From a virus: a stretch of 64,000 bases of DNA. A program made the position numbers and the translations under genes. Numbering within the stretch: the stretch's first letter is position 1; every line of letters begins with the position of its first letter. Location: the IMG/VR virus record IMGVR_UViG_3300046171_000110, positions 26,794-90,793 of that record; one strand, written 5' to 3'. The notes under the pieces were generated by a model, which was not told the origin of the DNA, ran no database searches, and saw only the letters and a list, made by a program, of their open reading frames with translations. Below are positions 41,852 through 60,808 of the stretch, piece by piece.

Positions 41852-43021
41852 TCATTGAAGGTCACGAATTGAACCTTGTCCTCCAAAGAAAGTTGTCCAT
41901 ACTTCACCCATTGTTCGGTAAAGTCCCTCTTGACCGAGGCGGTTAATGGCGAATGGGTCTCCAGTTTCAATTCCAGACTCAAAGTATTGAGTTGGTTTTG
42001 CAGTACTGTAGTACAAGTAATCAGTGTCTAGCATGTAAACTCTGCTAATTCCGTCTCCTTCGACATCCTTAGATGGAATGATTGGTACACCATTGTAAGT
42101 TGCTACAATGAAACCTGCTTCCATACCCGGTACACCTTTTACACCGTTGTAAGTTGGTACAACACGCTTCTCTTCCATGAATCTTTGTTGACTTTGTAGT
42201 AGTTGTTGAAGTCTCATCAAAGTATCATATCCAGTTAGCATAACCTTTGGATTTCCACCTCTCTGCCAAATCTTTCTGAATAGTTCATCAAAGTGGTCGA
42301 GAGATAGAGTTCTGTTGGTAGGAGTACCAGAAACACCGTTAACCGACATCTCAGCGTTAGCCCATGATGCGTTAGCCTCACGGTCTATTGAATAGATATC
42401 TAAGTCAGTTGCTGCGCTGAGGTGACCTGTTCCGTCTGCGATTGCACTTGTGCTGGTAGTTAGAGAGCCAGCGTGACCAGCGGTGACACGGTCAAGTGAC
42501 TCGATATCATTACCTGCTGGGTTGTCGGCATCTCTAAGTAGCATTTTGTTAATCATCTCTGCGTGGTGCTTACCCATTTCTTCTTTCAAAACTGAGCGAA
42601 TGTCACCTAGACCGTCATCCTTGTCGTTAAGGAAGATTGCTACTTCAGACATGTCGAATGAGTGAGCAACGGTTTTTGGCTTTGCTGCAACATTTTGGAA
42701 AGTTGGCTTTTGAGTTTCAGGTAGAGTACCGTTCTCTGCAATTCCACCGCCAACGGTAGCAGAAGGCTTAGCGGTTACTACACGCCATCCACTTCTGTCC
42801 CATGGCTTCTTAGGTAGGATAGAGAAAGCGTTGAACTCTTGGTTCAACTGACTCCATACTTTTCTACCGTAGATTGCTTGGTATGTTCCTGCTGTTGTGC
42901 TCAATAGAGGAGCATCTGCTTTCAATAGTTCTGAACCAGAGTAGGAATATCCCATGCTTTGTCCAGCACCGTAGTAGTAGCGCTCCATATCATTTACTGT
43001 TCTCATATAATTTCTTGCCAT
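41852..43021 (-). CDS. Major capsid protein (HK97 fold)
   Basis: 389 aa after protease; GGIAENG, PKTVAHSF.MSE, YNGVPII, MLDTDYL; strong GGAGG RBS. Confidence 0.9.
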   Translation of the reverse strand: MARNYMRTVNDMERYYYGAGQSMGYSYSGSELLKADAPLLSTTAGTYQAIYGRKVWSQLNQEFNAFSILPKKPWDRSGWRVVTAKPSATVGGGIAENGTLPETQKPTFQNVAAKPKTVAHSFDMSEVAIFLNDKDDGLGDIRSVLKEEMGKHHAEMINKMLLRDADNPAGNDIESLDRVTAGHAGSLTTSTSAIADGTGHLSAATDLDIYSIDREANASWANAEMSVNGVSGTPTNRTLSLDHFDELFRKIWQRGGNPKVMLTGYDTLMRLQQLLQSQQRFMEEKRVVPTYNGVKGVPGMEAGFIVATYNGVPIIPSKDVEGDGISRVYMLDTDYLYYSTAKPTQYFESGIETGDPFAINRLGQEGLYRTMGEVWTTFFGGQGSIRDLQ

Positions 43022-43033
43022 TCATATTCCTCC

Positions 43034-44425
43034 TTAGTTGTTAAATACACTCCCTGCGAGTCGGTGGACTTCGTCCCAACTCATGCTTCCAAGTACCTCA
43101 GTAGATGGGATTTCTACATTAGCCATATCACTGCTCTTACGAATCGTTGATTCTGGAGCAGCGCTTGAAATGTTGTCAATTCTGTTACTCAAGTCAGATA
43201 GGGCCTTTTCGATGTTAGCAAGTGGTGTTCTTGCGTCAAAGGAAGCGGCTTCTCTTGCTTGTGCTTCTGAAGTGAGTTCTTTGTTTAGTCTGTCAGCAAA
43301 TACGCCGCTTAGGCTGTGCTTGAATTGTTCTTCAAGAGCCGCTGCTTTGTAAACTTCGTAGGCCGCTTCTACATCAGTAGGAGAAACTACACTTGGGTGT
43401 AAATAGCCTTTTGCTACTTTTCCGCCGCCACCGGAATTAATTTTACCGATTGCGCCAGTTGATGGGTTTCCGCCTTCTTGTGCTCTTCCCTTAACTTGTC
43501 CAGCAAAGTAGTCAGCACCGTCACCAATTGCTTCTGGTGTGCTACCTAGGTTGGCTTTAGAGACATTATCAAAATGATGTCTTGCGCCACCGATGTCAAC
43601 ACCTTGTGATTTCAAAGTATTTTCCATCCAGTTCAGGTATTCACTAGAAATGACATCGGAATATTCTCCTTTTGCCATGTCTTCTTTGTGCTCAGCACCG
43701 TACATCTTTTCTTCTTCGTCTTTATCGGCCATTTCTTTCGCCTCGTCTTTTTCGTCTTTATCGTCTTTCTTGTCTTCCAAGTGTTCTTTAAGACCTGCTG
43801 GCATCTCGCCCTTCTCCATTGCGTCAAGGCGGCCATTCAATCTGTCTAGTACACTTGACAATTCAGTCATTGCATCTGTTTCTGTCATATCAGTATCCTC
43901 CTTCAATATACGGAATGTCGCCTCCGGGTTTATACCTTTCTCACAAATAGTAACCTCATGTAGTTCCAGTTTGGAAATTTCAGTGTAATCGCCATGACTG
44001 GCATCACTCTTTCGCATTCTCTTGAATGCTTGTCCTCCAATACTGAAACCTCTAAGGGCTCCTTTGCGAATTTCTTTGGCAACTTCTCTTGCCTTTTCTA
44101 TGTCGTCTCGTAGTTTAATGACTACGAACATACCAGCATCATCGACACCGGATTTCCAAACTCTACCATCAGAGTCAGTATATTGTGGAATAACGCTTCC
44201 AACCTGTATGTTAGAGTGAGCAAGTTGTACATTTCGGTAACCGTCTGCTTTCATAAAGTCACCAAAAGCATTTTTCAAAGCGCCTCTAGTAATCAAATCT
44301 CCTTGCTTGTCTACCATCTCAACAGATGCGTATCCAGCGATTACCAAGTCATTATCAGCCTTGATTAAATTGATGCTACCATTGTGAGTAACCGGGGAGG
44401 TTCTCAGCATCGAACTGGCTGTCAT
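43034..44425 (-). CDS. Prohead protease (HK97 gp4-like) fused to scaffold domain
   Basis: IAGYAS..VDKQGD, catalytic H(SN), GFSIGG, LHEVTIC..GINPEA; acidic coiled-coil C-half. Confidence 0.9.
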   Translation of the reverse strand: MTASSMLRTSPVTHNGSINLIKADNDLVIAGYASVEMVDKQGDLITRGALKNAFGDFMKADGYRNVQLAHSNIQVGSVIPQYTDSDGRVWKSGVDDAGMFVVIKLRDDIEKAREVAKEIRKGALRGFSIGGQAFKRMRKSDASHGDYTEISKLELHEVTICEKGINPEATFRILKEDTDMTETDAMTELSSVLDRLNGRLDAMEKGEMPAGLKEHLEDKKDDKDEKDEAKEMADKDEEEKMYGAEHKEDMAKGEYSDVISSEYLNWMENTLKSQGVDIGGARHHFDNVSKANLGSTPEAIGDGADYFAGQVKGRAQEGGNPSTGAIGKINSGGGGKVAKGYLHPSVVSPTDVEAAYEVYKAAALEEQFKHSLSGVFADRLNKELTSEAQAREAASFDARTPLANIEKALSDLSNRIDNISSAAPESTIRKSSDMANVEIPSTEVLGSMSWDEVHRLAGSVFNN

Positions 44426-44448
44426 CGTTTCTATAGACGACACTCATA

Positions 44449-44456
44449 CTATTTAA
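44449..44456 (-). promoter_or_regulatory. Putative TATA box of the protease-MCP operon
   Basis: TTAAATAG 24-31 nt upstream of ATG 44425. Confidence 0.45.
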
Positions 44457-47400
44457 CTAAGTACGGAAAACAGCAGAGTCCTCTGTTATTTCCAAAACAC
44501 CCTCGTCTGTAGGCACAGTCATGTGCTTAGGCTTGTCTTTTGCCTCAGTTTCTTCATCTATAGAAGAATCTTCTTCCATATCCCTAACATCGTAATCAGG
44601 CATTGTCTTTTTGTCATGTAAATTAGTAGGCCCCATAGGTGATTCTATAGGTGTAGCGTAGTCTATACCTAGTCCCTTAGTACCACTACTTGATTGGCCT
44701 ACAGCGCCCACTCCACTTTTAAGTAACTTTTCTACTAACTGTAAGCCCTTAACGAGTACCTTTTCTTTTTCTTGCTTAGTCCACCATTCAGAATCTTTAA
44801 TTTTCTTAGGAGGTATGAGGGGCTTTCCTTGACCTTCTGTTTCGTGAACCTCAGCCTTATCTTCTTGCTCTTCGGCAGGTGCGGCTATCTGCACATCAGC
44901 CTTGAGCAACGCACCAGCGACTGGTGCCCAGTAAGGTCTTTGACTTTCGGACATGCGAACCAAATAACCATTAGATGCCAACGGACTGTGCGCTGTCCAA
45001 GACTGTCCTGACTGTGTACACTTGTATACAACATCGCCCTGTGGCATGACTACTCTTATACCACTACCTGCTCTATAGACTTCGCACAGCCATTGGGAAT
45101 CTTCTGCCTTAGCAAGTAATCCCAGAGTTTCTTGACTAACAAGTCCTTCTCCCTCAGCCTCTTCTTCAATCTTAGAGCCAGTTACGGTAAACAACTTCTG
45201 TCCTTCGGCTGTTTCTGATTCACCTACATTACTGACATTGACTCTAACATGGTCACCCTCGTTGTACTTTTCATCACTGTCAAATGCAGCACCAACATCC
45301 ATGTAGACTTCTCCGTCAGCCTCTACAGCCCTGTCACCTAATTCTTCATCTTTAGTAATAGGACCAGTACCCAATCGATAGGTGTAAGGGCCGTTGCCTC
45401 TTCTCTCTAAGACTCTAAGCACGACATCGTTGCCCGGACTGAGCAGCACCCACTTAGGGTGTCGAAGTTCACCAGCCATGTAAGTAGACTTAGCATCACG
45501 AAGTAACAACTTCTCATTTTCTTTCTGCAAATCCTCTACTGTAACTTTGAGACCAGCATCGTCTGTAAGCCTTGTATCGCTAGCGCTCGGAACATGTACA
45601 TTCTCAACGCCTTCCAAACCACCTCTAAGTATCTTGATTCGGTCATCTATTGGCACATCGTGTACTTCTTTATCGTCATACTTGAGAACATCAAAGATGT
45701 AGTAGCCCTCTTCAGTCTTGAATACATCTAAATGATAATCGTTATCAGTTACTTTCTTGAAGTTACTCTTGTCTTCGTCTGACAAAGTAAAGTTAGTCGA
45801 AGTAACATCATCATCTTCTTTCTTGACAAAGCCTCTTTCACCTTCTGGCATAACAGATACTATCCAGTCGCCTGTAAAACCACGCAGATGTTCGAGGTCA
45901 CCCAAATCAAAAATACGATGCATCGGTTGTAGGATAGGAACGCCTTTACCTATCTCTTTGCGGATAATGTCAGGATTAGTAAGTGTTGCTAGGTTGACAT
46001 CTTCTGACATAGCAATCGTGTTAGTTTCATTTCTACCATGCTTAAATTGAGCCGGAAAATGCTCTTCTATGTTGTATTTTTCCCAATCAGTTCCATATAA
46101 AACATCAGTCAAACCTGCTCCCCTCCATATAGCCATTGTCGGTTGAACTAACCTATCTCGTATAGGTTCAGGTAGTGGGATTATATCTATCTTCCCGTCT
46201 TTACTTATCTTGTAATCAAAGGTAATAGGGGCATTGTGACCAAACTCCATCCGATAAAGCGGTGCATTGTAAGTCGAAGCCACTATGTTGTGAGCATTTG
46301 GTCCAACTGGTTCTATCGGTTTAGTGACTCGACCACTCAGTCTAGCGGTAACTGCGGCAGGAGCAGCGCCCGGCTCGACAAATGGGTCACTATAAATCAA
46401 AGAATCGAGGGTTTGTTGTGCTCTGTAAGACTTACTAGTGCTTGCGAAATGCTTACCCTTTCTATAAGATTCGCCGTATTTTTCAGCGTGTTTGTCCTGT
46501 AACATTCTTTTGGTATCTTTGTCTAATACTAGACTAGCATTAATCATCTTCGCTTTGAAATTTTTAATATCATTTTGAACTTTATTACGCTTAGGGCCAG
46601 TGAACGCTTTACTTTCTAATTCCTGCAAAGCCGCCAATTTTTCTTTGAAGTAGTCATGCACCCTTTCATCAGGATTGACAGCGTGATGTATGTCGAAACC
46701 CATTTGATAATTTCTTTCGTCGACACCAGCCTTTTCTGCACCACCCATACCTCTTCTATGTGGCACTAATGCGTTTCTTAAATTGTTAACCATGGTGATT
46801 AAGTTACTAGCATCTTCGTTGTCAAAACCCCTAGTCTTTTTCATTTGTTCAAGCGTCGCACCAAAGTCAGCATCTGGTGTATCAAAATGATGCTTAGCAA
46901 AATTACCAATTGTCTGTATAGGCATGCTGAAATTTAACAATTCTTCTCTTAACCCTTGTTGCTGTAAATCATTTATGTAGGGAGATATGATGTCTTGATA
47001 AAAATGCCTCATAGTTTCCTGAGTGTGGTAATCTTCTGGGTCCATTCCTAACTTTTCAGCCAACCCCCCTAAGTATCTATCAAGGTTATTGTCACCACCT
47101 GCTCTAATAAAGTCCTGTAGACTAAAAACAACATCACTATTATGGGCAAAGTCTTTCGCTTTTTCTGCAATCGGATTGAAATTTTCATTCATCTCTTTTT
47201 CATCATACTCGTCTCTGGATGTGAGTGAACTCAAGCCGTGTGCTTCTGAGGGGGCTTGATGAAGATAATCATTTAGCATTCGAGCAAACTGTCTTAGGTT
47301 ACCCTCGATTATGTCAGGGGGTAGACTTCTATCAAATAATTCTGGAAACTCAGCGGCTTTTTGTTTTGCTAACTTTTCGTAGGCTTGGTCGTCAGCCTCT

Positions 47401-50039
47401 AACTTTTCCAGTAACATCTTGGTGCCTTCTGGCATCTTGTCACCAAACATCTTAGGCTCAAGTGTAGGAATCATCGACAACTGTTCTTCCAAATCCATAA
47501 GTTTGTTTTCGATTATTTGACTGGCTTCACCCTCTTCTTGAGAGGCGGCGTTTTCTAATTCCTCTATTTGACGCTTAAGATTATCAGCCCTATCTTTGTT
47601 AGCACGACTTCTGTTAACATAGCCCTCACCGTATGTTAACGGTAAGTAAACATCTTCGTTCATCGGTCTATGACCATCGTGAACTTGGCCTATCTCTACG
47701 GGTGTGCCCGGAGGACCAGCAAGATGTTTGTGATGCGCTATCAAGACTGCATCCTTACCAGCATCCTTCTCACGAGCAGCAGGGTCGTGACCGCCCCTGA
47801 AAGTAAACGGATTATGAGTTTTGAAATGACCCGTTATTTTACCTTCTAATTTATCTCTAATATCACCTTGTTCTTTATTAGTCGCCTCTGGCGAGTCAAC
47901 TGCTGCTTCATATTCATTTAGATGTAAGTTAGTGACCGCTGGATTGAGTGACTGAGCGTGTCGAGAAAAGAAATTGTTAGTTCCTACATCTTTATTAAGA
48001 TGGTTAGCAGAACCAGCAGAATGGATGTTAATTGGCTCTTCGGGGTGGGCAAAATCTACTTGTGGTTTATCACTATACTTAGAATCAACAACCTCTATTG
48101 GTCTGGGTAAGAACGGCGCAAATGCGCTTTTAGTATTGAATGTAAGGTGTTCGCCTCCATCACTATCTTCATGTATTCTTCTGTGTTCAAGTTTACCTGT
48201 ATTAGGATTCTTCATAAAAAACAGGCTTTGTTCATACCCTTTGTTATCCATAGTCACTTGGTCAGCAGGATAGCCTTCATCATAAGGTCCGACTTTTTCT
48301 TCTCCAGCCCGCATCTGAGCGAAAGCCTGTTCAAATACATCTAACTCTTCTTCTTCACCCTTGATGCCGGTCCTGAAATGATTTTTACCGTGAAGTAATG
48401 TAGCCTGATGAAGTAACTCAAACAACAATTGTGGATTCTTATTCAGCCCGCCGACTTTGAAAGGCTTACCCCAGTAAGTCGCTAAGGAATCGTTACTTGT
48501 TCCACCCTTAGTATACTCAGGGTCAAAGTCTTCTTCATCTATGTGGGGAGCGTAATGTATACTAGCCTCTCTCCTACCTATCTTACCAGCAAATATATTA
48601 CGAGTTCGATTTATTCTTTCTCGCATTATCTTGTCAACTTCTTCTTGACTGAAAGGGCCTTCTTCTGGGTTCCATCTATCCCTATAAACAGGGTGCTGGC
48701 CGGGAGCGTGTAATCTACCGTTTTTGTCTGCGCCTATCAAAGCAAGCAGGGTATCAAATTCCATACCCATCTCATGACCTAAGATTTGTGCCTCATCAGT
48801 AACTTTAGTTTTCTGACCTGCTCTTTGAATAGGAGTGAATTGTATACTGCGATTAACAACCTTATTTGGTTCATTAGGGTCAGTTGAAAGTTCGTAATTT
48901 ATGTAAGGTCTTTGACTGTAGTCGATTTCAGGTATGTTTTCCATTTCTTGTAAATAGTCCAGCGCTCTTTTGTAACCATTCTCCACAGCGCCAAACGCTG
49001 ACATGTTTTCAACTGCCCCCGGCTCTCTGGCAGCAGATGGCTCTCTTTCTCTGATTGCTTTAGTATTGAAGCCCGGTATGTGAGCCTTACCTACCCAGTG
49101 GTCAAAGATAGGCGCAAATCTATTCTGTATATTCTGCACTATTCTCGGCACCCAATCGTTACCACTCCTAAGTTTGAGAGGGTTGTTTTTATTTGTCAAA
49201 CCAAAACGAGCAATGTGGTCGTATACTTTTTGTCGCTCTTCTGGAGTTGTCCATTCCAAACCAAGCAAGTAATCAGTAAACTTTAGATTGTCTTTCCAGC
49301 CTTCTTTGGCTTCCTCCATATGCTTAATAGCAAGTCTGTGATTTATTTCATCATCATCGAATATACCTTGCTCGTGCATCTGTTGAGTCATCAAACTTAC
49401 AACTGGGTCATTGTTACTTTTCCAATCATTGAAGTGCCTTTCATAGATATCGTGATTGGTCATATCATCGGCCAAATCCCCATAGTTAGCGGTGTTTCTC
49501 AGAAACGCCGATGGACTGTATTCAGCATCTCCACTTTGTGAGTGTTTTCTGTGAAAGTGGTTAGTGATGTCAGCATGGTCACGACTAACACTTTGACCGG
49601 GGGTGTCGCCTACATAATAATTAGCCACATGGTCAGCCATGTTGTCGCCGTGTAAAGGAAACAGACTTGAACCAAAATAGTCAATGTCATGATGAGAATC
49701 GCTGTTAGGGTCACCCGGATTCATTTGGATGTTAGCCCCAGTAAAAGGTTGGCCCGGCTCAGGTGTGACGACTCTCGAAGGTTGTAAAGAGGGGTTCTGT
49801 GCTATTTCACTACCAGACATAAACTGTTCTTGGAACCAATCATGATTGTCTTTGAGGATGATATCTGCCATCTTGAGCAGTGTATCGTCTTGATTGTTTA
49901 AATCATAACCGTGTCTTTGTAAGTTAAGACTAGCAAAGTAGTATTCGGCAGCAGCGTCTGCTTTGCCTATGCCGTCGTAAATAGATTCTATGAAAGTAAA
50001 CTTAGCCCTGTCAAAGGTATCGTAATGACCTTCTCTCAT
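44457..50039 (-). CDS. Giant head-module protein (~1,860 aa) with C-terminal degenerate ATP-dependent DNA ligase fold plus OB-like domain
   Basis: WIVSVMPEGER (motif I, K replaced by M), YIFDVLKYDD..P.DDRI.IL (IIIa), STY.AG..HPKW (V); N-terminal ~1,350 aa unrecognised. Confidence 0.75.
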   Translation of the reverse strand: MREGHYDTFDRAKFTFIESIYDGIGKADAAAEYYFASLNLQRHGYDLNNQDDTLLKMADIILKDNHDWFQEQFMSGSEIAQNPSLQPSRVVTPEPGQPFTGANIQMNPGDPNSDSHHDIDYFGSSLFPLHGDNMADHVANYYVGDTPGQSVSRDHADITNHFHRKHSQSGDAEYSPSAFLRNTANYGDLADDMTNHDIYERHFNDWKSNNDPVVSLMTQQMHEQGIFDDDEINHRLAIKHMEEAKEGWKDNLKFTDYLLGLEWTTPEERQKVYDHIARFGLTNKNNPLKLRSGNDWVPRIVQNIQNRFAPIFDHWVGKAHIPGFNTKAIREREPSAAREPGAVENMSAFGAVENGYKRALDYLQEMENIPEIDYSQRPYINYELSTDPNEPNKVVNRSIQFTPIQRAGQKTKVTDEAQILGHEMGMEFDTLLALIGADKNGRLHAPGQHPVYRDRWNPEEGPFSQEEVDKIMRERINRTRNIFAGKIGRREASIHYAPHIDEEDFDPEYTKGGTSNDSLATYWGKPFKVGGLNKNPQLLFELLHQATLLHGKNHFRTGIKGEEEELDVFEQAFAQMRAGEEKVGPYDEGYPADQVTMDNKGYEQSLFFMKNPNTGKLEHRRIHEDSDGGEHLTFNTKSAFAPFLPRPIEVVDSKYSDKPQVDFAHPEEPINIHSAGSANHLNKDVGTNNFFSRHAQSLNPAVTNLHLNEYEAAVDSPEATNKEQGDIRDKLEGKITGHFKTHNPFTFRGGHDPAAREKDAGKDAVLIAHHKHLAGPPGTPVEIGQVHDGHRPMNEDVYLPLTYGEGYVNRSRANKDRADNLKRQIEELENAASQEEGEASQIIENKLMDLEEQLSMIPTLEPKMFGDKMPEGTKMLLEKLEADDQAYEKLAKQKAAEFPELFDRSLPPDIIEGNLRQFARMLNDYLHQAPSEAHGLSSLTSRDEYDEKEMNENFNPIAEKAKDFAHNSDVVFSLQDFIRAGGDNNLDRYLGGLAEKLGMDPEDYHTQETMRHFYQDIISPYINDLQQQGLREELLNFSMPIQTIGNFAKHHFDTPDADFGATLEQMKKTRGFDNEDASNLITMVNNLRNALVPHRRGMGGAEKAGVDERNYQMGFDIHHAVNPDERVHDYFKEKLAALQELESKAFTGPKRNKVQNDIKNFKAKMINASLVLDKDTKRMLQDKHAEKYGESYRKGKHFASTSKSYRAQQTLDSLIYSDPFVEPGAAPAAVTARLSGRVTKPIEPVGPNAHNIVASTYNAPLYRMEFGHNAPITFDYKISKDGKIDIIPLPEPIRDRLVQPTMAIWRGAGLTDVLYGTDWEKYNIEEHFPAQFKHGRNETNTIAMSEDVNLATLTNPDIIRKEIGKGVPILQPMHRIFDLGDLEHLRGFTGDWIVSVMPEGERGFVKKEDDDVTSTNFTLSDEDKSNFKKVTDNDYHLDVFKTEEGYYIFDVLKYDDKEVHDVPIDDRIKILRGGLEGVENVHVPSASDTRLTDDAGLKVTVEDLQKENEKLLLRDAKSTYMAGELRHPKWVLLSPGNDVVLRVLERRGNGPYTYRLGTGPITKDEELGDRAVEADGEVYMDVGAAFDSDEKYNEGDHVRVNVSNVGESETAEGQKLFTVTGSKIEEEAEGEGLVSQETLGLLAKAEDSQWLCEVYRAGSGIRVVMPQGDVVYKCTQSGQSWTAHSPLASNGYLVRMSESQRPYWAPVAGALLKADVQIAAPAEEQEDKAEVHETEGQGKPLIPPKKIKDSEWWTKQEKEKVLVKGLQLVEKLLKSGVGAVGQSSSGTKGLGIDYATPIESPMGPTNLHDKKTMPDYDVRDMEEDSSIDEETEAKDKPKHMTVPTDEGVLEITEDSAVFRT

Positions 50040-50055
50040 CCATACCACCAGCCGT

Positions 50056-50442
50056 TCAATTCAGACGGCTGGATAGTCGGTCAATAGACTTCTTCAATTC
50101 TGTTAAGGTTGGACCGTCGCCACCTTTGAAGTTTTCAAGAGCGCCTGTTGTACTGAAAGCAGTTGGATAGTAAGGTGATGTGCGTGTCAAGACATCGCTG
50201 TTTTCCATAGTTGCACCTTTGTTAGCAACATCTTCTACCCCGTCAAGTAGTACATTGTTTGTGTTGTAAAAAGCATTAGGTACACCAGACGGCTGTGCCT
50301 CGAATCGAGCATAACCTTCTTTTGAGCCTTCTTTTTGTCCAGAATAATTCGGCTCTGCTTTAGCAATACGCTCTTCTAACTTCTTTGCCTCTTTTAGCAA
50401 TCTGTCAACTTCTGGCTCTCTAGGTTCAAATCTAGGTCTCAT
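50056..50442 (-). CDS. Hypothetical head-module protein
   Basis: 128 aa in tight operon; IAKA and LKKS motifs. Confidence 0.65.
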   Translation of the reverse strand: MRPRFEPREPEVDRLLKEAKKLEERIAKAEPNYSGQKEGSKEGYARFEAQPSGVPNAFYNTNNVLLDGVEDVANKGATMENSDVLTRTSPYYPTAFSTTGALENFKGGDGPTLTELKKSIDRLSSRLN

Positions 50443-50443
50443 C

Positions 50444-50815
50444 TTAATCCATTCCTAATTCATTTCCAATTGCACCTTCTGACTTTGCTTGGTCAGCCAG
50501 TGCGTGTATATCTGCCCAATCCATGCTGTGGAAGTCAGCGTTGGTTTTGGGTATGCTCAAAGGCTCTCCGTTGTCTCCTTTTAGAAGTACATCGTCAGCA
50601 TCTCCTCTAAAGGTGTCAGGCATGACATCCTCTGGCATACGATTTCTAGCAGATACAAATCCAGCCTTTCTCAAAAGACTTGCAGGATTAGTAAGTGCTT
50701 TCTTCAATTCTGCGTTTTCTGCTTTTAACATCTGCAAACCTGCATCCATGCTTTCCATCTTAGTGATGAGAGCACCCATGAGTTTCTCAGCAACATTCTC
50801 CCCCTCGTCGCTCAT
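50444..50815 (-). CDS. Hypothetical head-module protein, scaffold-like C-terminus
   Basis: GAGGTGA RBS; C-terminal IP..ADFHSMDWADIHALA resembles the protease-scaffold end IP..EVLGSMSWDEVHRLA. Confidence 0.7.
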   Translation of the reverse strand: MSDEGENVAEKLMGALITKMESMDAGLQMLKAENAELKKALTNPASLLRKAGFVSARNRMPEDVMPDTFRGDADDVLLKGDNGEPLSIPKTNADFHSMDWADIHALADQAKSEGAIGNELGMD

Positions 50816-51169: not shown

Positions 51170-51187
51170 CTCCACTACCTTCCTTGA

Positions 51188-52968: not shown

Positions 52969-54275
52969 CACAATCCCTCCGCCCAACTTATGACCGTATC
53001 TCTGTCTACTCCCCACTCTCGGAGAGACTCCTCACCTTTTGATGTTCCGTCTCTGTTGGAGAACTGAACAAATCGCTTTAATTCAGTTTTTCTTACAGGG
53101 TCTTTTTCACCTATGAAAGCCATGACAGCCTTTGCCTGCCTTTCTTTCATCTGCAAATGTGGAGTAATTTTGTTCAGTAATTTAGTCAAATCATCTTTGG
53201 AGTAGAAACTAACACGGTGCTGGCTCCGTTGACCGTCGTTGTACACTTTTTGGTCAACCTGTAACACACCAGCGCCTATGTTCTTGTACAATTGTTCACA
53301 ATGTAATTTACCTCTGTCACCAGTGGCAATAAAACCAGCCCTTGGCTCACCTCTTTCTGTAATGGTAATGTAGCCGTCAGCATCGAGAAAACCTGCTGCA
53401 TAAGCCCAAGGGTCCTTGATTATGAGACCTTCTTTAGACAAACACATGTATTCGCCTTTTCGATGAGCCTTGACGATGTTTATCTCTTCACCATACATGT
53501 TGAGTAGTTTGGATAGTCTGTTAGAATTAAGTCGAGGTACGCCTTTTTCGATAAGGTTCTCAGTGATTGCTCTGGCTGACATAGAGCCGTGATTTGTGAT
53601 TTCTTCCTTTGCTAATCTCATCCATTTCTGTTGTTCTTTGGAAAGGTTGTCGATTTGATGTAATGCATTCTTCCACATCTTACGAGCATCTTGTTTCATT
53701 TCCATAGCGTTGACCCAAGCAAACTTTTCTTCCTCGCCCCAAACATCTTCAAACTCATCTAACTTAGCCAAAGCATCTTCTGCCGCCGCCCAAGAGTTAC
53801 AGGCTCTTACTAAACTACTCTTACGAGTTTCGCCAAACAACCTTAGTGACTTCAAATCTTTTTCACTCACACCCAACTTTCTGATATCTTCTTCGTATTC
53901 AGAGCCCCAGCCAAGTTGTTTGATGGTCGCATCTACCTCCATGCTCTTGATTTTACGAACATTATCTATGATATCATCTATCTCTTCACGGTGTTCTTTG
54001 AATACTCTTCGGGCTTTTCTGAGTTCTTTGACAATCTCAGATGCGCTTTTACCAAGTCTGTCCTCAAACCAACCTTCACCAGTAATACAAAATGGTGCAT
54101 ATACAGTTTCAGGTACATTTTCTGTAGTAAACACTACGGTCTGTGATGCAATTGACTTAGCAATGCTGTCATCGACATGAGGATGAGTAGTAAGACTTGA
54201 TGCGATGATGTTCAAAGTTTCGTGACCCATGTCAACAGATTTAGTAAAGTTTCCAATTCCCAGACTCGGCCACAT
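52968..54275 (-). CDS. LAGLIDADG endonuclease-domain protein with ~290-aa N-terminal extension
   Basis: WAYAAGFLDADGYI single motif and PHLQMKERQA; lies between TerL and portal. Confidence 0.85.
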   Translation of the reverse strand: MWPSLGIGNFTKSVDMGHETLNIIASSLTTHPHVDDSIAKSIASQTVVFTTENVPETVYAPFCITGEGWFEDRLGKSASEIVKELRKARRVFKEHREEIDDIIDNVRKIKSMEVDATIKQLGWGSEYEEDIRKLGVSEKDLKSLRLFGETRKSSLVRACNSWAAAEDALAKLDEFEDVWGEEEKFAWVNAMEMKQDARKMWKNALHQIDNLSKEQQKWMRLAKEEITNHGSMSARAITENLIEKGVPRLNSNRLSKLLNMYGEEINIVKAHRKGEYMCLSKEGLIIKDPWAYAAGFLDADGYITITERGEPRAGFIATGDRGKLHCEQLYKNIGAGVLQVDQKVYNDGQRSQHRVSFYSKDDLTKLLNKITPHLQMKERQAKAVMAFIGEKDPVRKTELKRFVQFSNRDGTSKGEESLREWGVDRDTVISWAEGL

Positions 54276-54296
54276 AATTATCTCCACTTTTTGGTA

Positions 54297-54304
54297 TAAT
54301 ATAA
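54297..54304 (-). promoter_or_regulatory. Putative TATA box
   Basis: TTATATTA 22-29 nt upstream of ATG 54275 in an AT-rich gap. Confidence 0.45.
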
Positions 54305-54311
54305 TTCTTTA

Positions 54312-55793
54312 TCAGATTGTGAACCAACTAGCCCTCGCTCCTCTGTTGGGCGACACATCACCGAACCACTCATCGAAGCCTTCAAGATAATCATCGAGTG
54401 CAATGATAGAGCCTCTGAACTCTTTGGTAGCCCAGTTAGCCAAAGCCAGACTCATAGCCAAGTCATCGTGACTACCTACAGATTCTAGTCTACCATTCTT
54501 CTGCATACCAAATCTACTGAGTTGTGTTTCGAGAATGCGAGTGAACTCCTTGCTCTTTTCATCACCCCAAGGTGTTTTGATTTGACCTTGTTCAAAAGCC
54601 ATCAGTAAAGACATGAACATACTTTCTTTCTTTTGTCTGGTAGTCATAAATGTCTTGATTGGTATATCACCTCGCATATCCTGCAATTCAGCCGCAAACA
54701 TACGCTGAAAGTTATTACCTTCAAGTTCAATTAGGTCAGGTTGAAATCTATTGTTGAGTAATATGACTTGTCTCTTTTGTGCAGCACCACTCAATCCTTT
54801 CTGATTAAGTACATGCACTAATTGCTTTTCTTCACTACCCGGCAACACCCTAAGTACACTCATAGCAGTGTAGTCAGCATTAGAGTCAGATGCAATCGCT
54901 GGGTCCCAGCCTACAAAGTGCTGACCAAATACTCCAGCAGATTGTCCATTCTCATCGAACTCTTCTTCTGCTTTATCAAGCAATACCAAGTTTTTGTCTC
55001 TGGCTTTCTCTAGCAAAGTCATCGGGAACATACTTGACATATCGTGGATAGGTTCACACAAATACTCACGAGCGAACTTAATCGCTGGCATAGAATCTTC
55101 TCGTACTTTCAAAGCATCAAGTGGCCATCGAGTAGGCCAAAGCGGTTCGCCATTAGGTAAGATAGCCGGATAGGTTTCGACTCTGAATGCTTTTTTATCT
55201 TCTAACTCAGCGTACAAATCGTTGTAACTAAACGGTGTACCGACCATCATCAATCTACCTGTGTGGTGCAGAACCGGAAGTAAAACGGTATAGAACCAGT
55301 CGGCTGCTCTTTGTAACTCAGAACTGGTAGTACCCCAAAGAATATCGTCACATACTACTACATCAGGGTGGAAACCACGAGTAGCACCACCAACCGACTT
55401 AGCCATCATACGACTACCGTTGGTGAACTCGAAGTAAGATTTAGCCCAAGGCTTACCTGTAGGTTTCAATCCTTTTAAAATGTCAGCGCTTTCTATGTTA
55501 TTTCGGATAAACCGCATGTGTTCAAGTGTCTGCTCAAGACTGTGACTGAATATCATAATATGAGTATTAGGTTTGAAAGCGGCCAACCAAAGCGCATAAG
55601 ACATAAAGAATACAGATTTACCGTGGTCACGGCTCGCTTTGACGCAGTATCTTCGGCTTTCATTGAGACCTTTCAACCAGTCTTCGTGATGGTCAGAGAA
55701 CTCGAATTCAAGGATTTCAGTAAAGAAGTACTCGAATGACTTGCGGGACATTTCCACATCCATGTCCCTGACCAGTTCATCGATACCTTCCAC
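54312..55793 (-). CDS. terL: Terminase large subunit
   Basis: ASRDHGKS Walker A, VVCDD Walker B, GTP coupling motif, GWDPA and HDDLAM nuclease motifs. Confidence 0.95.
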   Translation of the reverse strand: MEGIDELVRDMDVEMSRKSFEYFFTEILEFEFSDHHEDWLKGLNESRRYCVKASRDHGKSVFFMSYALWLAAFKPNTHIMIFSHSLEQTLEHMRFIRNNIESADILKGLKPTGKPWAKSYFEFTNGSRMMAKSVGGATRGFHPDVVVCDDILWGTTSSELQRAADWFYTVLLPVLHHTGRLMMVGTPFSYNDLYAELEDKKAFRVETYPAILPNGEPLWPTRWPLDALKVREDSMPAIKFAREYLCEPIHDMSSMFPMTLLEKARDKNLVLLDKAEEEFDENGQSAGVFGQHFVGWDPAIASDSNADYTAMSVLRVLPGSEEKQLVHVLNQKGLSGAAQKRQVILLNNRFQPDLIELEGNNFQRMFAAELQDMRGDIPIKTFMTTRQKKESMFMSLLMAFEQGQIKTPWGDEKSKEFTRILETQLSRFGMQKNGRLESVGSHDDLAMSLALANWATKEFRGSIIALDDYLEGFDEWFGDVSPNRGARASWFTI

Positions 55794-55799
55794 ATTCCA

Positions 55800-56798
55800 T
55801 CACTCCACTTTTACCCTTCCGCCAATAGACCTTTCAATACCTCTTCGTTGTTCCGGTGTCACATTTTTAGGGTCTAATTTAGAAGCGTCACCTTGAGGAG
55901 TCGGAGTTTCCTCTTCAACATCTATTTCGTCGTTTATCGCTTCTGCTCCATAATTAGCAGTGTTTTCCAAAGCCCCATCTCTTTGGGTTTCTGCACCTAC
56001 TCCGTCTGCGGCTACAAGGACTGAATTGAAATTGCTAGCCGCCTGTATTGGATTGGCCGCTGCTGCATTAGTCGCTTCTTGAACAGAATCACTTTGCGGC
56101 ACATTTACTCTATTGAATGTCTCAGCCCCTGCCTCAAAATTAGGTACCATTTCCTCTACTTTTCTACCCATTTCTTCGTAACGACGGGCTTCTTCGCCCA
56201 TGTTTCTACCTGCGTCTCTATACATACCCTGTCTAACAGCGACTCCCATTCTTTTGTTTTCTTTATCCTGTTCCGCACGAGTGGCGGCAACGGCTTCATT
56301 TCTTTGAGTGGCTCTTTTCAACCTTTCATCTTCTTCTTGACTGACTGCAAAATTCCTTCGTCTAACAGCAGCAACTGGATTAAACTTAGAACCCATACCT
56401 TCTCCTCTTGAGCGAGTCGCTTCCATCATTTTGGCATCTCTTTCTGCGACTGCTTGTTTTTCGGCTTCTCTAAGGTCAGCCCTCGCCTGTCCTCTTCTAC
56501 CAACGAATTTACGACCAAGAGCACTACCTAACTGAGAACCTGTGGCTCCTCCAGAAACCATAGCATTAGCCATTCCTCCAAGACTTCTGTGCGAACCAGT
56601 AAGTGCACCGGCTACTCCTACAACGCCACCAAGAAAACCTCCTGCTCGCTCTCTCAAAGTCTTACCACGAGGACCGCCACCGCCGCCACCGCCGCCTAAC
56701 ATCATTACAGGTCCACCTCCACTAACAGGATATACTGCTCTGACAGCCTTCTTAACTAAGACTTGGTTGTTTGATTTCTTGACTAACACCTTACCCAA
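55800..56798 (-). CDS. Hypothetical protein with glycine-zipper hydrophobic segment and coiled coil
   Basis: GGFLGGVVGVAGAL..GGATGSQLGSALG; duplicated VLVKK(S/A) at the N-terminus. Confidence 0.7.
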   Translation of the reverse strand: MGKVLVKKSNNQVLVKKAVRAVYPVSGGGPVMMLGGGGGGGGPRGKTLRERAGGFLGGVVGVAGALTGSHRSLGGMANAMVSGGATGSQLGSALGRKFVGRRGQARADLREAEKQAVAERDAKMMEATRSRGEGMGSKFNPVAAVRRRNFAVSQEEDERLKRATQRNEAVAATRAEQDKENKRMGVAVRQGMYRDAGRNMGEEARRYEEMGRKVEEMVPNFEAGAETFNRVNVPQSDSVQEATNAAAANPIQAASNFNSVLVAADGVGAETQRDGALENTANYGAEAINDEIDVEEETPTPQGDASKLDPKNVTPEQRRGIERSIGGRVKVE

Positions 56799-58991
56799 TC
56801 AAACACCCCCAAAAGCAATCTTAACAGCCTTTACTACATCAGGTTTTACATTCCACTGGTCAGCAACTTTGTGCCAGTCGCCTGTACTTTGATACAGGCC
56901 ATGAACATCTACACTGGTAATACCTAGACTCTTAGCAACTCTTTGGACATCCCAGAATGAATTGATTGATACCTTGTCAGAAGGAAGTAGTTTTCTTACA
57001 GAATCGTCTTGCATAGCATCGAGAGCCTGTACTTGTTCCATCTTTCTCAAAATATCATCGAGCCCTGTGAGAACATCATTAGAAGTAAGCACTGGTGCAT
57101 AAGGGTCTACCAATGGTGGTGCCCCTTCGACATTTCCAACTAGGCTGAGCATAGTTTGTCTAGTTCCTAACTGTTGCATTCGTGCTGGGTCGAATTCACC
57201 ATATCGACCTTGACCTCTTGCAGCGACATCTGCTTCTACCTGTATAGGTCTTCTAATAGCAGGGGAAACAGGAGGTCTTGCTACAGCCACTCTTGAAGGT
57301 GCCTCCGGTTGCCTAGCAACAGAAGCCAAAGGAGGCGCTGTTGGCTGAGGCTGAACAGGAGGTGTCAAAGCAGGCCCTTCTTCTCTTGATTGATTAGTAG
57401 GGGCCATTTCTGTAGGCATCAGTACTCTGCGCTCAAAGTGTTCTGGAATACCAGCCTCGTGAGGCATATCTTCACCAAAGTGAGCAGGTAAACCTGTAGT
57501 AGCAGTTCGTGTAAGGTCTGTCTGTATATCTTGTAATTCAAACGGGTCATGTCCTGTGTAATCTAACATCTGTTGTAACACAGATTCAAGTTTTTCTCTG
57601 AGTCCTTCTTTTGGTTTCGATTTATCAGAAGTGGTAACTTTTGCATTTCTGAATTGTTTAACTGCCTCTAGCATAGCCTGCTCTTTATCCATACCTTGAT
57701 TCATAAGTTGATGAGCAATATGCGACAAATGTCCAACAATTACTTTACCAGCATGATTAGACCTTTTGTGAAACTTATTTTCAATTTCAAATTGACCGAT
57801 TCCTTGCTGGTTTATGTGGTGGTTTAACTCATCATCATTGTAGTCTGTATGAGACCCTGCTATGTTAGCAGTATTATGAATTATATTTTTGAAATAACCA
57901 CCAGCCTGCTTTGAATCTAACTTAGTAACTTCTTGAAACAAGCCAGACATGATAGCACTATTACGCATATCATACAAATCCTCATCAGAATAAGGACTTA
58001 CATCTACGCCTTTGCTTTCAAGCGCTTGTTTAAACTCAGCAATCTTAGCAGCCTTGGCTTCTGGGCCTGATTTTTTACCCCTACCCCCTCTTGGTCCACT
58101 AGTTTCGTAAGCGGCATCTGGAAGAATATTATAAAGTGAGTGTAAGAAAACTTCTGGATGGCTTTGTTGACTAGCCAACGCTTCTCTTGTAGCCTCATCT
58201 CTAAGTCCAATTGGTATATTACCTGTTCTCAAAGCGTGTGTCAATTCATTTTTATCCCAAGCACCTACATTTTTAGAGAGTATACGAGGCTTTAGTCTGT
58301 TATACTTTACATAATTTAAACTATTAATATTTTCAGGAGTATCTAGCCCTATTCCGTTTAGCACTTCTCCTAGTTCCCTGTTCATGTGAAACATACCCCC
58401 GTCTAACCATTTACCCTTCATTGAAAGCGGATGGTCGATGTTAGCCCTATTGAAAGAATAAGTCATCAAAGGAGTCGGGCCGCCCTCGAACAAAGGGTCA
58501 GCCCCTCTAACACTTCTCATGTGAGCAGGGTCAGTATGGTCATACAAGTCACCAGCGAATACTTTTCTCCACAATGGGCTGTCTACATCAGGTAATTTGT
58601 GCTGACTGTCATCTGGATGAGCGTTGTTGTATCTGACAATGGCCGCTTGAACTATACGCTTTGCACCATCCATGTCTACTCCTTTGTCACCATATCTCGA
58701 TACCAAGTCATTCAACACATAATCAATCGGATGCTGACCACCATCTAACTTCTCACCAGTTTCAGGGTGATGGTCCCAAGGAGTATGGTCAGGTGACAAG
58801 TCTTTGGTTAGGCTTTCTTCTGGTGGGTAGCCGGGATGCGGTAGACCACCGGGTGGCGCACCGGGCCCAGTGTAATGCAAGTAAGCAGCCTTGTTGATAA
58901 TCGGATTAAGCACTGATGAAAAATCAGCCCAAGTAAAAACCTGTATTTGTTTTATCAGATAAGATTTAGCGGGCTGGTGAACTCTAAACAT
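56799..58991 (-). CDS. Hypothetical protein (730 aa), possible internal head protein
   Basis: Long ORF coupled on both sides; Pro-rich linker; short helical repeats at the C-terminus. Confidence 0.7.
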   Translation of the reverse strand: MFRVHQPAKSYLIKQIQVFTWADFSSVLNPIINKAAYLHYTGPGAPPGGLPHPGYPPEESLTKDLSPDHTPWDHHPETGEKLDGGQHPIDYVLNDLVSRYGDKGVDMDGAKRIVQAAIVRYNNAHPDDSQHKLPDVDSPLWRKVFAGDLYDHTDPAHMRSVRGADPLFEGGPTPLMTYSFNRANIDHPLSMKGKWLDGGMFHMNRELGEVLNGIGLDTPENINSLNYVKYNRLKPRILSKNVGAWDKNELTHALRTGNIPIGLRDEATREALASQQSHPEVFLHSLYNILPDAAYETSGPRGGRGKKSGPEAKAAKIAEFKQALESKGVDVSPYSDEDLYDMRNSAIMSGLFQEVTKLDSKQAGGYFKNIIHNTANIAGSHTDYNDDELNHHINQQGIGQFEIENKFHKRSNHAGKVIVGHLSHIAHQLMNQGMDKEQAMLEAVKQFRNAKVTTSDKSKPKEGLREKLESVLQQMLDYTGHDPFELQDIQTDLTRTATTGLPAHFGEDMPHEAGIPEHFERRVLMPTEMAPTNQSREEGPALTPPVQPQPTAPPLASVARQPEAPSRVAVARPPVSPAIRRPIQVEADVAARGQGRYGEFDPARMQQLGTRQTMLSLVGNVEGAPPLVDPYAPVLTSNDVLTGLDDILRKMEQVQALDAMQDDSVRKLLPSDKVSINSFWDVQRVAKSLGITSVDVHGLYQSTGDWHKVADQWNVKPDVVKAVKIAFGGV

Positions 58992-60808
58992 CAGCCCACT
59001 CTCCCACTACCTCTGGCTGCAAACATAGTGGAAGGCGCTCCCCAGTTCTTAGGGTCGTTCTCCATATCTTCGGTAGCCCCTTCTGGTCGAGTTGTGCTAT
59101 CTTGTCCTTCTCTATGTCCTACTTCTCTGTTCTTACCGTGACCGCCTTGACTGGCAGCCTTGAGTCTACGCTCTTGTCTTTCAGCAGCATCTTTGAGTTG
59201 ACGAAGCAACCTTCTAATCTGAGCGAACTGCATGTAATCTTTTTTCTTCTTAATTTCTTCAAGTTCTGATTTGATGAGTTGTAGTTCTGATTTAGCCAAA
59301 GCCTGCCCTTTAAGTCGAGGCGCTCTAGGTTCTCTGATTGGTAGTCCTGCACTTGCAGCCATACTTGGTGACTTTGGATTGTAAGCGCTCTCTGCACCCA
59401 TAGCGTGTCCAGCAGGCATGACAGGAACATTACCCATCAACTTACGGCGCTGCATTGTACCCATCTGTTGGTCGTAACCTCTTGGGAAAAGCCTGAGTGG
59501 TTGCTTGGTTTCAATACCTAAGTGACTTCTGTGTACTGCCAAAGGTGATTTATCAAGCCCACGCTTTTTTGCAGGTTTCAAAAATCGAGAATGTAATTTA
59601 CTTCGACGACTAGTGGCAGTGCTTATATCCGCACCACCGGGTTGAATTTCATACTGAGGTTGCTTCCAAGATTGGTCTTTAGAACCACCCATATCATCCA
59701 ACCTGCTCTTCATCAAAGTAGACCAAGCATCTTCTATTGGCGAGGCTTTTCCAAACGAACTATATTGGGGTAAACTTGGAAGTCCCATCATTTGAAGCAT
59801 AGCAATTCTGTTTCTTTCAGCATTAGCAACATCTAATTGTTCGGGCGATAATGTGTCTTCTCCAAAACCAAACATCGCTCCCGGTTCAGCCGCCCTTTGC
59901 GCTAAATGTTCTCGGACACTTTGATTCAGGCCGCCCGGCTCTCTAGTGGGGTCAAGAACTTCGTTGGTCAATTCTTCCATTGTAACGCCCGGTGTTTCTA
60001 TACCTGCCATAATTTGAGCCATCAACGCTTTTTTATTAGGATGGTCATCAGGCATATTTTCTTTGATGTTTCCAAATAGTCCAAGAAGCGGTGCAAGTGA
60101 AGGGTCTTCTGCATGAGCAAGTGCTTCGTGAGCGTCAATAGTCGCTATCCTTCGTGCGAGTTCATCAACATCTTCTGTTTTAAAATAAGCATCTTTGGGT
60201 GCCGCACGACCCGGATTGCGGGATGCTAGATTAATAGTAGGGTCGGCCTGTGGTTCAAATGCTCCAAAAGTTAATCCTATCGCTTTGTCGTAATCAGGTT
60301 GTTCGGGGTAGCCCAAAGTTAGTCTTGATTGCTGTCCTGTAAAATCTGGTGAGCGAGTTCGTTGGAGGTCAAATGGATTGTATTCTTCTTGCTTCATTAA
60401 ACTAGACCAAGCATGTGCCATCGGCTCACCTGTAGCAAGCATACCACCCGGTGCTGGCATAGTACCAGTCGCTGCACCAAGGCTAAGATTACCCATGTCG
60501 GGCATCCCTGTCATAGCACCAAACTGTTGACCTTCATTGAATTGGTCGTCCATCATCGGTTCTTCTTCTTCCTCTTCCGGCATCATCGGAGGCATTTCTG
60601 GTTCAGGCTTTGGGATTGATATCTTGAGATGAGGTAAGTCATCGGTCTTTTCTTCTGCTTCTTTTTGAGATTGTTTCTGGTCTCGAAGTTTATCCATTTC
60701 CTTCGGGTCACCAACACCATACTTGTAATCATCATCATCTTTGGTGTAACCAAGATTAGATTCGCTTCGAGGACTGTACATCCTAGTGTCTGAACCTGTC
60801 ATTGGCAT
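58991..60808 (-). CDS. Hypothetical low-complexity protein with duplicated AWSxLMK motif
   Basis: ATG 60808 after GAGGTGA; AHAWSSLMKQ and EDAWSTLMKS lie 228 aa apart. Confidence 0.7.
   Translation of the reverse strand: MPMTGSDTRMYSPRSESNLGYTKDDDDYKYGVGDPKEMDKLRDQKQSQKEAEEKTDDLPHLKISIPKPEPEMPPMMPEEEEEEPMMDDQFNEGQQFGAMTGMPDMGNLSLGAATGTMPAPGGMLATGEPMAHAWSSLMKQEEYNPFDLQRTRSPDFTGQQSRLTLGYPEQPDYDKAIGLTFGAFEPQADPTINLASRNPGRAAPKDAYFKTEDVDELARRIATIDAHEALAHAEDPSLAPLLGLFGNIKENMPDDHPNKKALMAQIMAGIETPGVTMEELTNEVLDPTREPGGLNQSVREHLAQRAAEPGAMFGFGEDTLSPEQLDVANAERNRIAMLQMMGLPSLPQYSSFGKASPIEDAWSTLMKSRLDDMGGSKDQSWKQPQYEIQPGGADISTATSRRSKLHSRFLKPAKKRGLDKSPLAVHRSHLGIETKQPLRLFPRGYDQQMGTMQRRKLMGNVPVMPAGHAMGAESAYNPKSPSMAASAGLPIREPRAPRLKGQALAKSELQLIKSELEEIKKKKDYMQFAQIRRLLRQLKDAAERQERRLKAASQGGHGKNREVGHREGQDSTTRPEGATEDMENDPKNWGAPSTMFAARGSGRVG
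59708..60414. repeat. Imperfect 23-bp direct repeat pair (59708-59730 and 60392-60414) flanking a 684-bp in-frame unit
   Basis: CTTCATCAAAGTAGACCAAGCAT vs CTTCATTAAACTAGACCAAGCAT, 21/23 identical. Confidence 0.8.

Follow-up and report, generated by a model that had tools for sequence, protein, structure and literature searches.

A hydrophobic-x-lysine motif as the probable cut site of an S78 prohead protease in the head module of a magrovirus

The head-assembly proteins encoded by IMG/VR virus record IMGVR_UViG_3300046171_000110 carry a recurrent three-residue motif, hydrophobic-x-lysine, which is rather probably the cut site of the S78 head protease encoded among them, with the scaffold, small core proteins, the N-terminus of the major capsid protein (MCP) and several other head-module proteins as predicted substrates. 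The DNA analysed, referred to here as the window, comprises 64,000 nt of a 90.8-kb (90,793-bp) genome, and positions are those of the window unless marked as genome positions. The head-assembly module within it is that of a magrovirus, a tailed virus of marine group II archaea that is uncultured and a distant relative of HVTV-1. What we observe in this module are the statistics and conservation of the motif, the family and catalytic residues of the protease, a common C-terminal tail, and leaders that end in the motif. A literature search found no paper that describes the motif or the AWxLLK tag that accompanies it in some of these proteins.

Results

The head module is of tailed-virus type and lies on the minus strand between 41.8 and 60.8 kb. 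It is transcribed in the order 608-, 730- and 332-amino-acid (aa) proteins, terminase large subunit (TerL), a 439-aa LAGLIDADG protein, portal, proteins of 116, 123, 128 and 1863 aa, a 469-aa protease-scaffold fusion and, finally, the MCP. The MCP is 33-34% identical to those of the haloviruses HCTV-5 and HVTV-1 and 78-99% identical to proteins of hundreds of marine viral contigs, a similarity pattern that matches the published description of magroviruses (PMC5434244) and points to the virus being one of them. Searches of Pfam and PHROGs returned no family for the 116-, 123-, 128-, 332-, 730- and 608-aa proteins, nor for a 114-aa protein encoded elsewhere in the window.

Scoring the motif as [LIVM]-x-K-[ASGDE] against 1000 composition-matched shuffles, we count 67 copies in the 12 head-module proteins where 31.6 ± 5.1 are expected, a number that none of the 1000 shuffles reaches (z about 7); the 31 other proteins of the window combined hold 65 copies versus 51.4. 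Shuffling inside segments of 15 or 30 residues, by which local composition is kept, gives a z of 6.6. When all 20 residues are tried at the lysine position, K alone is enriched (2.12x, z 6.95), with R at 0.98x and Glu at 0.81x, and the stricter hydrophobic-hydrophobic-K form is found 19 times versus 6.7 expected. Over the whole genome, the observed-to-expected ratio is 2.09x in the head block versus 1.08x in the replication block and 0.98x in the tail block, and thus the enrichment over replication and tail proteins that the original prediction had foreseen is indeed present. It also withstands a lysine-matched comparison, as the replication block has a lysine content of 6.3%, about equal to that of the head block, and yet carries half the motifs per K (0.082 versus 0.165). 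Furthermore, a first site falls inside the first 40 residues in seven of the 12 head proteins, compared to five of the 31 others (Fisher p 0.01). The excess is unevenly spread, being significant for the protease-scaffold, LAGLIDADG, 123-aa and 128-aa proteins and marginally so for the 1863-aa protein; whole-protein counts of the MCP, portal, TerL and the 116-, 332-, 730- and 608-aa proteins are at expectation in the shuffle test.

The protease and the scaffold form a single protein of 469 aa (open reading frame (ORF) 43034-44443, minus strand). Its prohead serine protease domain, residues 29-181 (43901..44359, minus strand), is flanked by NLIK28|AD and RILK181|ED. Membership of the S78 family is indicated by PF04586, which scores 41.9 bits (cutoff 21) over residues 30-187, and by phrog_23555, a head maturation protease (E 2.6e-14); the domain matches S78 profiles only, and no match to a T4 gp21-type, Glu-cutting protease was obtained. 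Among 128 aligned family members, H76 is present in 127 and S134 in all, and S134 falls in the same column as the Ser of HK97 gp4's G-M-S-V-G, a residue that, together with the corresponding His, we take to be catalytic in that enzyme. The motifs at K28 and K181 are conserved in 100% of 50 close homologues, and the position at the C-terminal border is K in 116 of the 128 S78 representatives. A search of solved-structure sequences with the protease-scaffold gave nothing useful.

The scaffold part, residues 182-436 (43136..43900, minus strand), holds sites at K211, K258, K296, K345, K366, K388, K413 and K436, and the whole fusion protein has 15 sites versus 3.4 expected (z 6.8). Cutting at every one of these, plus the K181 border, would yield scaffold pieces of 21-49 aa. 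In 50 distinct homologues, conservation of motif K is 0.93 versus 0.68 for other K, and a motif K never becomes R; at K28, K181, K345 and K413 the full motif is kept in all 50, though local identity is 0.64-0.8. Directly after IRK436|S follows a C-terminal tail, residues 437-469 (43037..43135, minus strand), that contains M-S-W-D-E-V-H-x-L-A. In a profile-profile comparison (hhalign), this tail matches the C-terminus of the 123-aa family with a probability of 89.5% and an E of 1.9e-6. The 123-aa protein (50444..50815, minus strand) itself carries MLK31|A, LKK39|A, LRK50|A and LLK79|G, four sites versus 1.0 (p about 0.02), and its residues 80-123 (50447-50578) constitute the scaffold-type tail with M-D-W-A-D-I-H-A-L-A. 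Both proteins thus end in a common module consisting of a motif site (IRK436|S or LLK79|G) and then about 30 residues with [IV]-x-I-P and M-x-W-x-[DE]-[IV]-H-x-L-A, which we propose to be a shell-docking tail that would be removed during maturation. A hidden Markov model of the tail, run over the proteins of the window, matched only these two and no third carrier.

The 389-aa MCP (41852..43021, minus strand) has the HK97 fold and matches Pfam SU10_MCP (37.8 bits, cutoff 24.1) and phrog_24667 (E 3.7e-56), while among solved-structure sequences only a weak match, to 6j3q, was found. Its residues 1-34 (42920-43021, minus strand) are a proposed N-terminal propeptide ending in ELLK34|AD, a motif that is conserved in 98% of 64 homologues.

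The same signal recurs in other lineages. In HVTV-1, the head genes hold 32 sites versus 16.4 (z 4.2), again with K alone enriched, as opposed to 7 versus 11 in the tail genes. The enriched proteins there are the protease, a 'head assembly' protein and a 1313-aa protein, and all four sites of the HVTV-1 MCP fall within its first 102 residues, with GMSK102|AD at the position matching K34. We also retrieved 22 distant magrovirus-like loci via a protease-scaffold 40% identical to that of this virus. Their protease-scaffold proteins hold 218 sites versus 93 (z about 15, to be read, like every z across relatives, as an upper bound). In their MCPs the mature part is depleted of the motif (12 versus 31.6) and the first 55 residues are enriched (16 versus 5.1), with LLK|[SAQ] at residues 27-32. 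Moreover, an exhaustive profile-free search for S78 proteases produced 150 representatives that are at most 50% mutually identical, 126 of them with a near-complete catalytic domain. Outside the catalytic domain, these 126 hold 636 sites versus 317 (z about 20), with R at 1.5x and other residues near 1. Hydrophobic-x-K is found at 97% of the C-terminal borders and just before the domain in 73%, versus 41% in control windows.

The 332-, 730- and 608-aa families, as well as that of the LAGLIDADG protein, were compared over loci retrieved around TerL, and for the first three a conserved lysine stands at the end of an N-terminal leader or an internal tag. The Gly-rich 332-aa protein (ORF 55800-56798, minus strand) starts with the leader M-G-K-V-L-V-K-K|S-N-N-Q-V-L-V-K-K|A (56748..56798). 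In 25 homologues that are only 32% identical, K17 is kept in 84% and the motif in 76%, versus 13% for other K, and M-x-K-V-L-V-K-K|A is conserved at the extreme N-terminus. The N-terminal 34 residues of the 730-aa protein (58890..58991; ORF 56799-58991, minus strand), ending in IINK34|AA, are likewise a proposed propeptide: across 29 homologues with an overall identity of 30% and a local identity of 0.28, K34 is present in 100% and the motif in 93%. The expectation that the motif would be kept in homologues while its flanks diverge is thus borne out by these two families. The 608-aa family (ORF 58991-60817, minus strand) conserves one or two E-P-M-x-x-A-W-S-x-L-M-K elements. The first of these in the present virus ends at K142|Q (60392..60427) and is conserved where homologues have the segment; the second, A-W-S-T-L-M-K, ends at K370|S (59708..59743), and among 37 homologues 89% retain the K and 84% the motif. 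Head proteins contain W-x-x-hydrophobic-hydrophobic-K two times, where 0.23 are expected (p 0.02).

A variant leader, M-x-x-A-F-x-x-A-W-x-[LI]-L-K|S, is found in this genome on two ORFs outside the head block. One is the 114-aa ORF (8871-9215, minus strand), which starts with M-G-R-A-F-N-D-A-W-A-I-L-K13|S (9177..9215) and, although remote from the head genes, shares their strand. The other is a 278-aa ORF with a leader of the same kind, M-S-G-A-F-E-Q-A-W-L-L-L-K|S, situated outside the window (genome 13321-14157, minus strand); it lies on the late-gene strand, midway in the plus-strand replication block. The distant magrovirus-like loci contain 114 ORFs of 63-185 aa, all on the coding strand, that begin with the eight-residue leader M-[ST]-W-x-x-[IV]-L-K, and when this leader is removed they fall into 54 unrelated BLAST groups of small proteins. 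A single locus can have an array of up to eight of them, located around the portal genes and upstream of these. The loci also contain larger ORFs (500-950 aa) that begin with M-x-x-(S)-L-L-L-K|A. The leader's Leu is encoded by all six codons, and therefore selection acts on the peptide; conservation at the nucleotide level was rejected as its cause on the same grounds. The I/V-L-K ending of the leader equals that at the protease's own borders. As in T4, then, a common leader ending in the proposed cut motif is carried by unrelated proteins, both in the related loci and in this genome.

The 439-aa LAGLIDADG protein (52968..54287, minus strand) consists of a helical N-terminal domain, a winged helix at approximately residues 213-289, and an I-MsoI/I-CreI-like LAGLIDADG domain at residues 290-428. 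An AF2 model (pLDDT 87; Foldseek E 6e-5) supports this architecture: the LAGLIDADG domain aligns with I-MsoI (1m5x) at a VIA-align Z of 14.6 and a root-mean-square deviation of 2.1 over 124 residues, and the winged helix (residues 213-289) with 2od5 at a Z of 9.7. The fold is I-CreI-like, G-F-L-D-A-D-G-Y is present, and the columns of D302 and G305 are invariant. No structural match to residues 1-210 was among those listed, which were taken up by the other domains, so that this part was barely tested. The protein has 11 sites versus 3.3 (z 4.7), all within residues 1-291; put differently, 11 of the 27 Lys outside the nuclease domain are motif K, versus none of the 12 within it (p 0.008). The winged helix is bordered by K217 on one side and K291 on the other. 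All 65 distinct homologues conserve the K291 motif, their mean number of sites is 10.8 versus 3.3 expected, and conservation of motif K is 0.78 versus 0.60 for other K. Since all 80 of the related loci have a full-length homologue (43-99% identity) between TerL and portal, and the sporadic distribution of a mobile element was not found, we reject the possibility of a stray homing endonuclease. In HVTV-1, an HNH gene occupies the same slot before the portal, and in magrovirus group C the TerL-portal nuclease slot holds a PolD exonuclease homologue (PMC5434244). As a syntenically fixed head-module gene whose slot in HVTV-1 holds an HNH gene, the LAGLIDADG gene could encode a packaging nuclease.

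The 1863-aa protein (44457..50048, minus strand) has 15 sites versus 9.0 (z 2.1). Its invariant sites are K1364, K1368, K1410, K1647, K1716, K1767 and K1777, an N-terminal alignment shows a conserved G-I-G-K29|A, and conservation of motif K is 0.83 versus 0.62 for other K. Within it, residues 1438-1533 (45450-45737) resemble a ligase weakly: DNA_ligase_A_M scores 24.3 bits, less than its cutoff of 26.2, and covers profile positions 106-200 only, so that we do not regard the protein as a DNA ligase. At the position of ligase motif I it reads V-M-P-E-G-E-R, with Met in place of the adenylated Lys. Among solved-structure sequences, the best match to this region is DNA ligase 3, at an E of only 0.23, and an AF2 model of the last 564 residues (26 homologues, pLDDT 47) was too poor to judge the fold and was not used. 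The 128-aa protein (50056..50442, minus strand) carries LLK17|E, IAK28|A and LKK118|S, three sites versus 0.6 (p about 0.03), which are conserved in 69-93% of 29 homologues; it is a probable small core or scaffold-like protein. The 116-aa protein (50825..51175, minus strand) has one site versus 0.7 expected, conserved in 21-24% of homologues versus 98% for six other K, and so finds no support as a substrate.

Two further head genes serve as context only and are not candidate substrates. The portal protein (51199..53016, minus strand; PF04860, 45.2 bits) has one site versus 2.2 expected, and its close homologues are slightly depleted of the motif (0.71x). With its listed start, a GTG at 53016, the ORF shares 49 bases (52968-53016) with the end of the LAGLIDADG gene; translation probably begins 16 codons further downstream, at the internal Met of I-V-M-A-E-E-K-G. 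TerL (54312..55793, minus strand) matches Terminase_6N and 6C over their cutoffs as well as phrog_38 (E 8e-62), and with four sites versus 2.3 it is not enriched. Directly upstream of the 608-aa gene, a 248-aa Cys/His-rich protein (60819-61565) shows weak helix-turn-helix and HNH-like matches and has the site LVQK7|G. The genes at 60.8-64 kb have a motif excess of 10 versus 4.5. Because of this excess and of LVQK7|G, the module may reach past the 60.8-kb end first assigned to it. Elsewhere in the window, a 479-aa protein of the plus-strand block (4409-5848, plus strand) has 8 sites versus 3.2 (z 2.8), with PILK19|G near its N-terminus, and a 4411-aa ORF of the tail block (12700-25935, minus strand) has no excess (9 versus 10). 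HVTV-1 encodes very large proteins between portal and protease, of 1048 aa and 1313 aa ('zeta toxin' annotation), in the retrieved locus (2146-10480), the latter with sites at K7 and K19. Large head-module proteins seem to be a trait common to the magrovirus/HVTV-1 lineage, judging by these sequences.

Discussion

Several lines of evidence lead us to read the motif as a cut site. The lysine-specific excess is confined to the head block and is repeated in HVTV-1, in the distant loci and across the S78 family. Cuts that have been measured for S78-type proteases follow K or R: HK97 gp4 cuts gp5 at K103/S104 (PMC10275583), and the capsid proteins of phi12 are cut after R128 and K87 (PMC8569155). 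Motif lysines are better conserved than others, and stand out in the diverged N-termini of the 730-aa (K34) and 332-aa (K17) proteins. In distant relatives the mature MCP is depleted of the motif whereas its N-terminus is enriched, both copies of the docking tail directly follow a motif site, and the leaders on 54 BLAST groups of proteins end in the I/V-L-K of the protease borders. As such, the motif behaves as the recognition site of the module's own HK97 gp4-type protease, as was predicted.

The system would most likely be T4-like in its workings, where cutting, residence in the capsid and any delivery into the host are what we infer from these patterns. The protease would cut after the Lys of hydrophobic-x-K, most strongly in the hydrophobic-hydrophobic-K form, and before a small or acidic residue. 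By means of their common C-terminal tail, the protease-scaffold fusion and the 123-aa protein would dock under the shell, and once the procapsid is closed, the protease would release itself at K28 and K181. It would then cut the scaffold to pieces of 21-49 residues that are able to exit the shell, detach the docking tails at K436 and K79, and remove the 34-residue N-terminal peptide of the capsid protein. N-terminal leaders or internal tags would be trimmed from the 128-, 332-, 730- and 608-aa proteins, with the winged-helix-LAGLIDADG protein and the 1863-aa pseudo-ligase protein as possible further substrates.

We must however take into account several points that weigh against such processing. 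The support for this virus and its close relatives is entirely computational, and the z values across relatives overstate it because homologous sequences are not independent. Cutting is improbable at several sites that are embedded in folded domains (protease K97-K145, MCP K146 and portal K172), and Lys-rich scaffold-like helices may supply part of the excess. The excess in the 1863-aa protein is marginal (p 0.04), and in the 22 distant loci head ORFs upstream of the protease reach only 1.2x, with tail ORFs at 1.08x. Furthermore, the residue after the leader K is varied (E, K, A, S or R), and thus the cut context is not strict.

Could the motif instead be a by-product of composition and helix periodicity in Lys/Glu-rich amphipathic, scaffold-like helices, with most sites left uncut? 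Most sites of the scaffold and of the LAGLIDADG N-terminal domain do lie in predicted helices, several others are within folded domains, and replication-side proteins at 1-9 kb are mildly enriched (1.47x). However, K alone is enriched at this position, and not R or E, the excess survives shuffling in 15-residue segments, and a replication block with the same lysine content has only half the motifs per K. Conserved sites are also found in linkers and in non-helical, diverged N-termini, and the mature capsid protein is motif-depleted, which together make this explanation quite improbable in our view. It also seems improbable to us that the motif and the AW-x-x-L-L-K tags are binding or modification marks, either for docking to shell, portal or chaperone or for modification or cross-linking of the Lys, with no proteolysis involved. 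The tags do exceed the length of a cut site and look like short helices, the common C-terminal tail shows that docking peptides exist in this module, and HK97-type shells use Lys in cross-links. Against this, the same triplet stands on both sides of the protease domain across the S78 family and coincides with the measured HK97 cut, and depletion in the mature shell suits the avoidance of cuts better than it does docking.

The strongest competing account concerns the enzyme-like proteins alone: the winged-helix-LAGLIDADG protein and the ligase-like 1863-aa protein may be cytoplasmic packaging or replication factors rather than cargo, comparable to the HNH nucleases that assist the terminases of HK97-like phages, in which case their motifs would be incidental. 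We lean against this, but not by much. It is favored by the conservation of a nuclease slot between TerL and portal, whether filled by LAGLIDADG, HNH or, in magrovirus group C, by a PolD exonuclease homologue (PMC5434244), as well as by the DNA-binding winged helix and the weak excess of the 1863-aa protein. On the other hand, some 11 sites versus 3.3 are maintained across 65 LAGLIDADG homologues down to 43% identity, all of them outside the nuclease domain, and the linker lysine K291 is invariant. The site pattern of the LAGLIDADG protein therefore fits processing by the head protease, with a cytoplasmic packaging nuclease as a serious rival. A wider version of the cut-site reading is a modular capsid cargo system, in which a short tag with hydrophobic-hydrophobic-Lys at its end would route any protein into the procapsid, where the HK97-type protease would free it for delivery along with the DNA; we put this forward tentatively and consider it rather unlikely.

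How does head processing by the S78 protease, as proposed here, compare to known systems? The HK97 gp4/gp5 delta domain is like it in that the protease belongs to the same family (PF04586), with conserved His and Ser, and cuts after the Lys of a hydrophobic-x-K|S. The cut-site sequence, T-F-N-K|S, fits the motif, and the delta (scaffolding) domain contains three further copies (IQK9|A, LTK52|S and LIK87|S). In HK97, however, the scaffold belongs to the capsid protein and further cargo proteins are not known, whereas the present virus has its scaffold joined to the protease and conserved sites in many more proteins of the head module.

The resemblance to T4 is one of mechanism, not of family. 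T4 gp21 recognizes an L/I-x-E motif, and a capsid targeting sequence (CTS) is carried by the internal proteins IPI-III and Alt (PMC9026906). In both systems the motif spans three residues, of which the first is hydrophobic and the last precedes the cut, the scaffold core is cut small, and the shell protein loses an N-terminal peptide; both also place a common leader that ends in the cut motif, about 10 residues long in T4, on otherwise unrelated proteins, and the T4 protease is thought to be self-trimming (PMC9026906), as ours would be. They differ in that Lys rather than Glu precedes the cut and that the protease is an HK97 gp4-type Peptidase_S78, not of gp21 type, and is fused to the scaffold. 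Moreover, the virus has an archaeal host, its tags include internal ones, a C-terminal docking tail is proposed as well, and the present system is predicted from sequence alone. In phiKZ and SPN3US (proteases gp175 and gp245, respectively), many head proteins similarly lose N-terminal propeptides that hold several motif copies, and the head stores a large mass of ejection proteins (PMC10052503). There, the motif is A/S/G-x-E, the protease is related to T4 gp21, and the cuts have been mapped by mass spectrometry, unlike the predicted ones here. Phage P1 offers a parallel in DarA, DarB and Hdf, large enzyme-like proteins that are loaded into the head, DarA being trimmed by the prohead protease; the Dar proteins are delivered with the DNA against host defence (PMC12810830). 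These have no sequence relation to the proteins described here, for which packaging is only proposed.

The original prediction had placed the motif at domain borders throughout the head module, and each of its examples was found in place: K34 of the MCP, K28 and K181 of the protease, K211, K258, K296, K345, K413 and K436 of the scaffold, K66, K1364, K1647, K1716 and K1777 of the giant protein, and K291 of the LAGLIDADG protein. As borders, only those around the protease (K28 and K181, with the Pfam domain at 30-187) and around the winged helix (K217 and K291) could be confirmed. It had further held that about nine non-shell proteins are loaded and matured. More proteins than MCP and scaffold do carry conserved sites, but the figure of nine finds no support, because the site of the 116-aa protein is poorly kept (21-24%), portal and TerL give no support and the giant protein is marginal. 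Nor did the motif hold up as a capsid 'address': for loading, the evidence favors the C-terminal tail and the AW-x-x-hydrophobic-hydrophobic-K tags, and the triplet looks like a cut site only. That the cargo would be injectable is pure inference, and for the LAGLIDADG protein a packaging nuclease is the simpler rival.

Magroviruses rank with the most abundant surface-ocean viruses, and the present analysis yields a concrete and testable cut motif for the head protease of these uncultured archaeal viruses and of their halovirus relatives. The description of the magroviruses recorded ligase and nuclease genes within the structural module but gave no explanation for them (PMC5434244); processing of head-module proteins by the S78 protease offers one. 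If the modular cargo system were real, it would account for a nuclease and a dead ligase inside the structural module, and would be without precedent both among archaeal viruses and among S78 proteases. Should the tags indeed load cargo, they would mark which uncharacterised magrovirus proteins enter the host with the DNA. Beyond this lineage, the S78-wide signal suggests that hydrophobic-x-Lys may be a general preference of S78 prohead proteases, which would aid the annotation of propeptides and scaffolds in phages.

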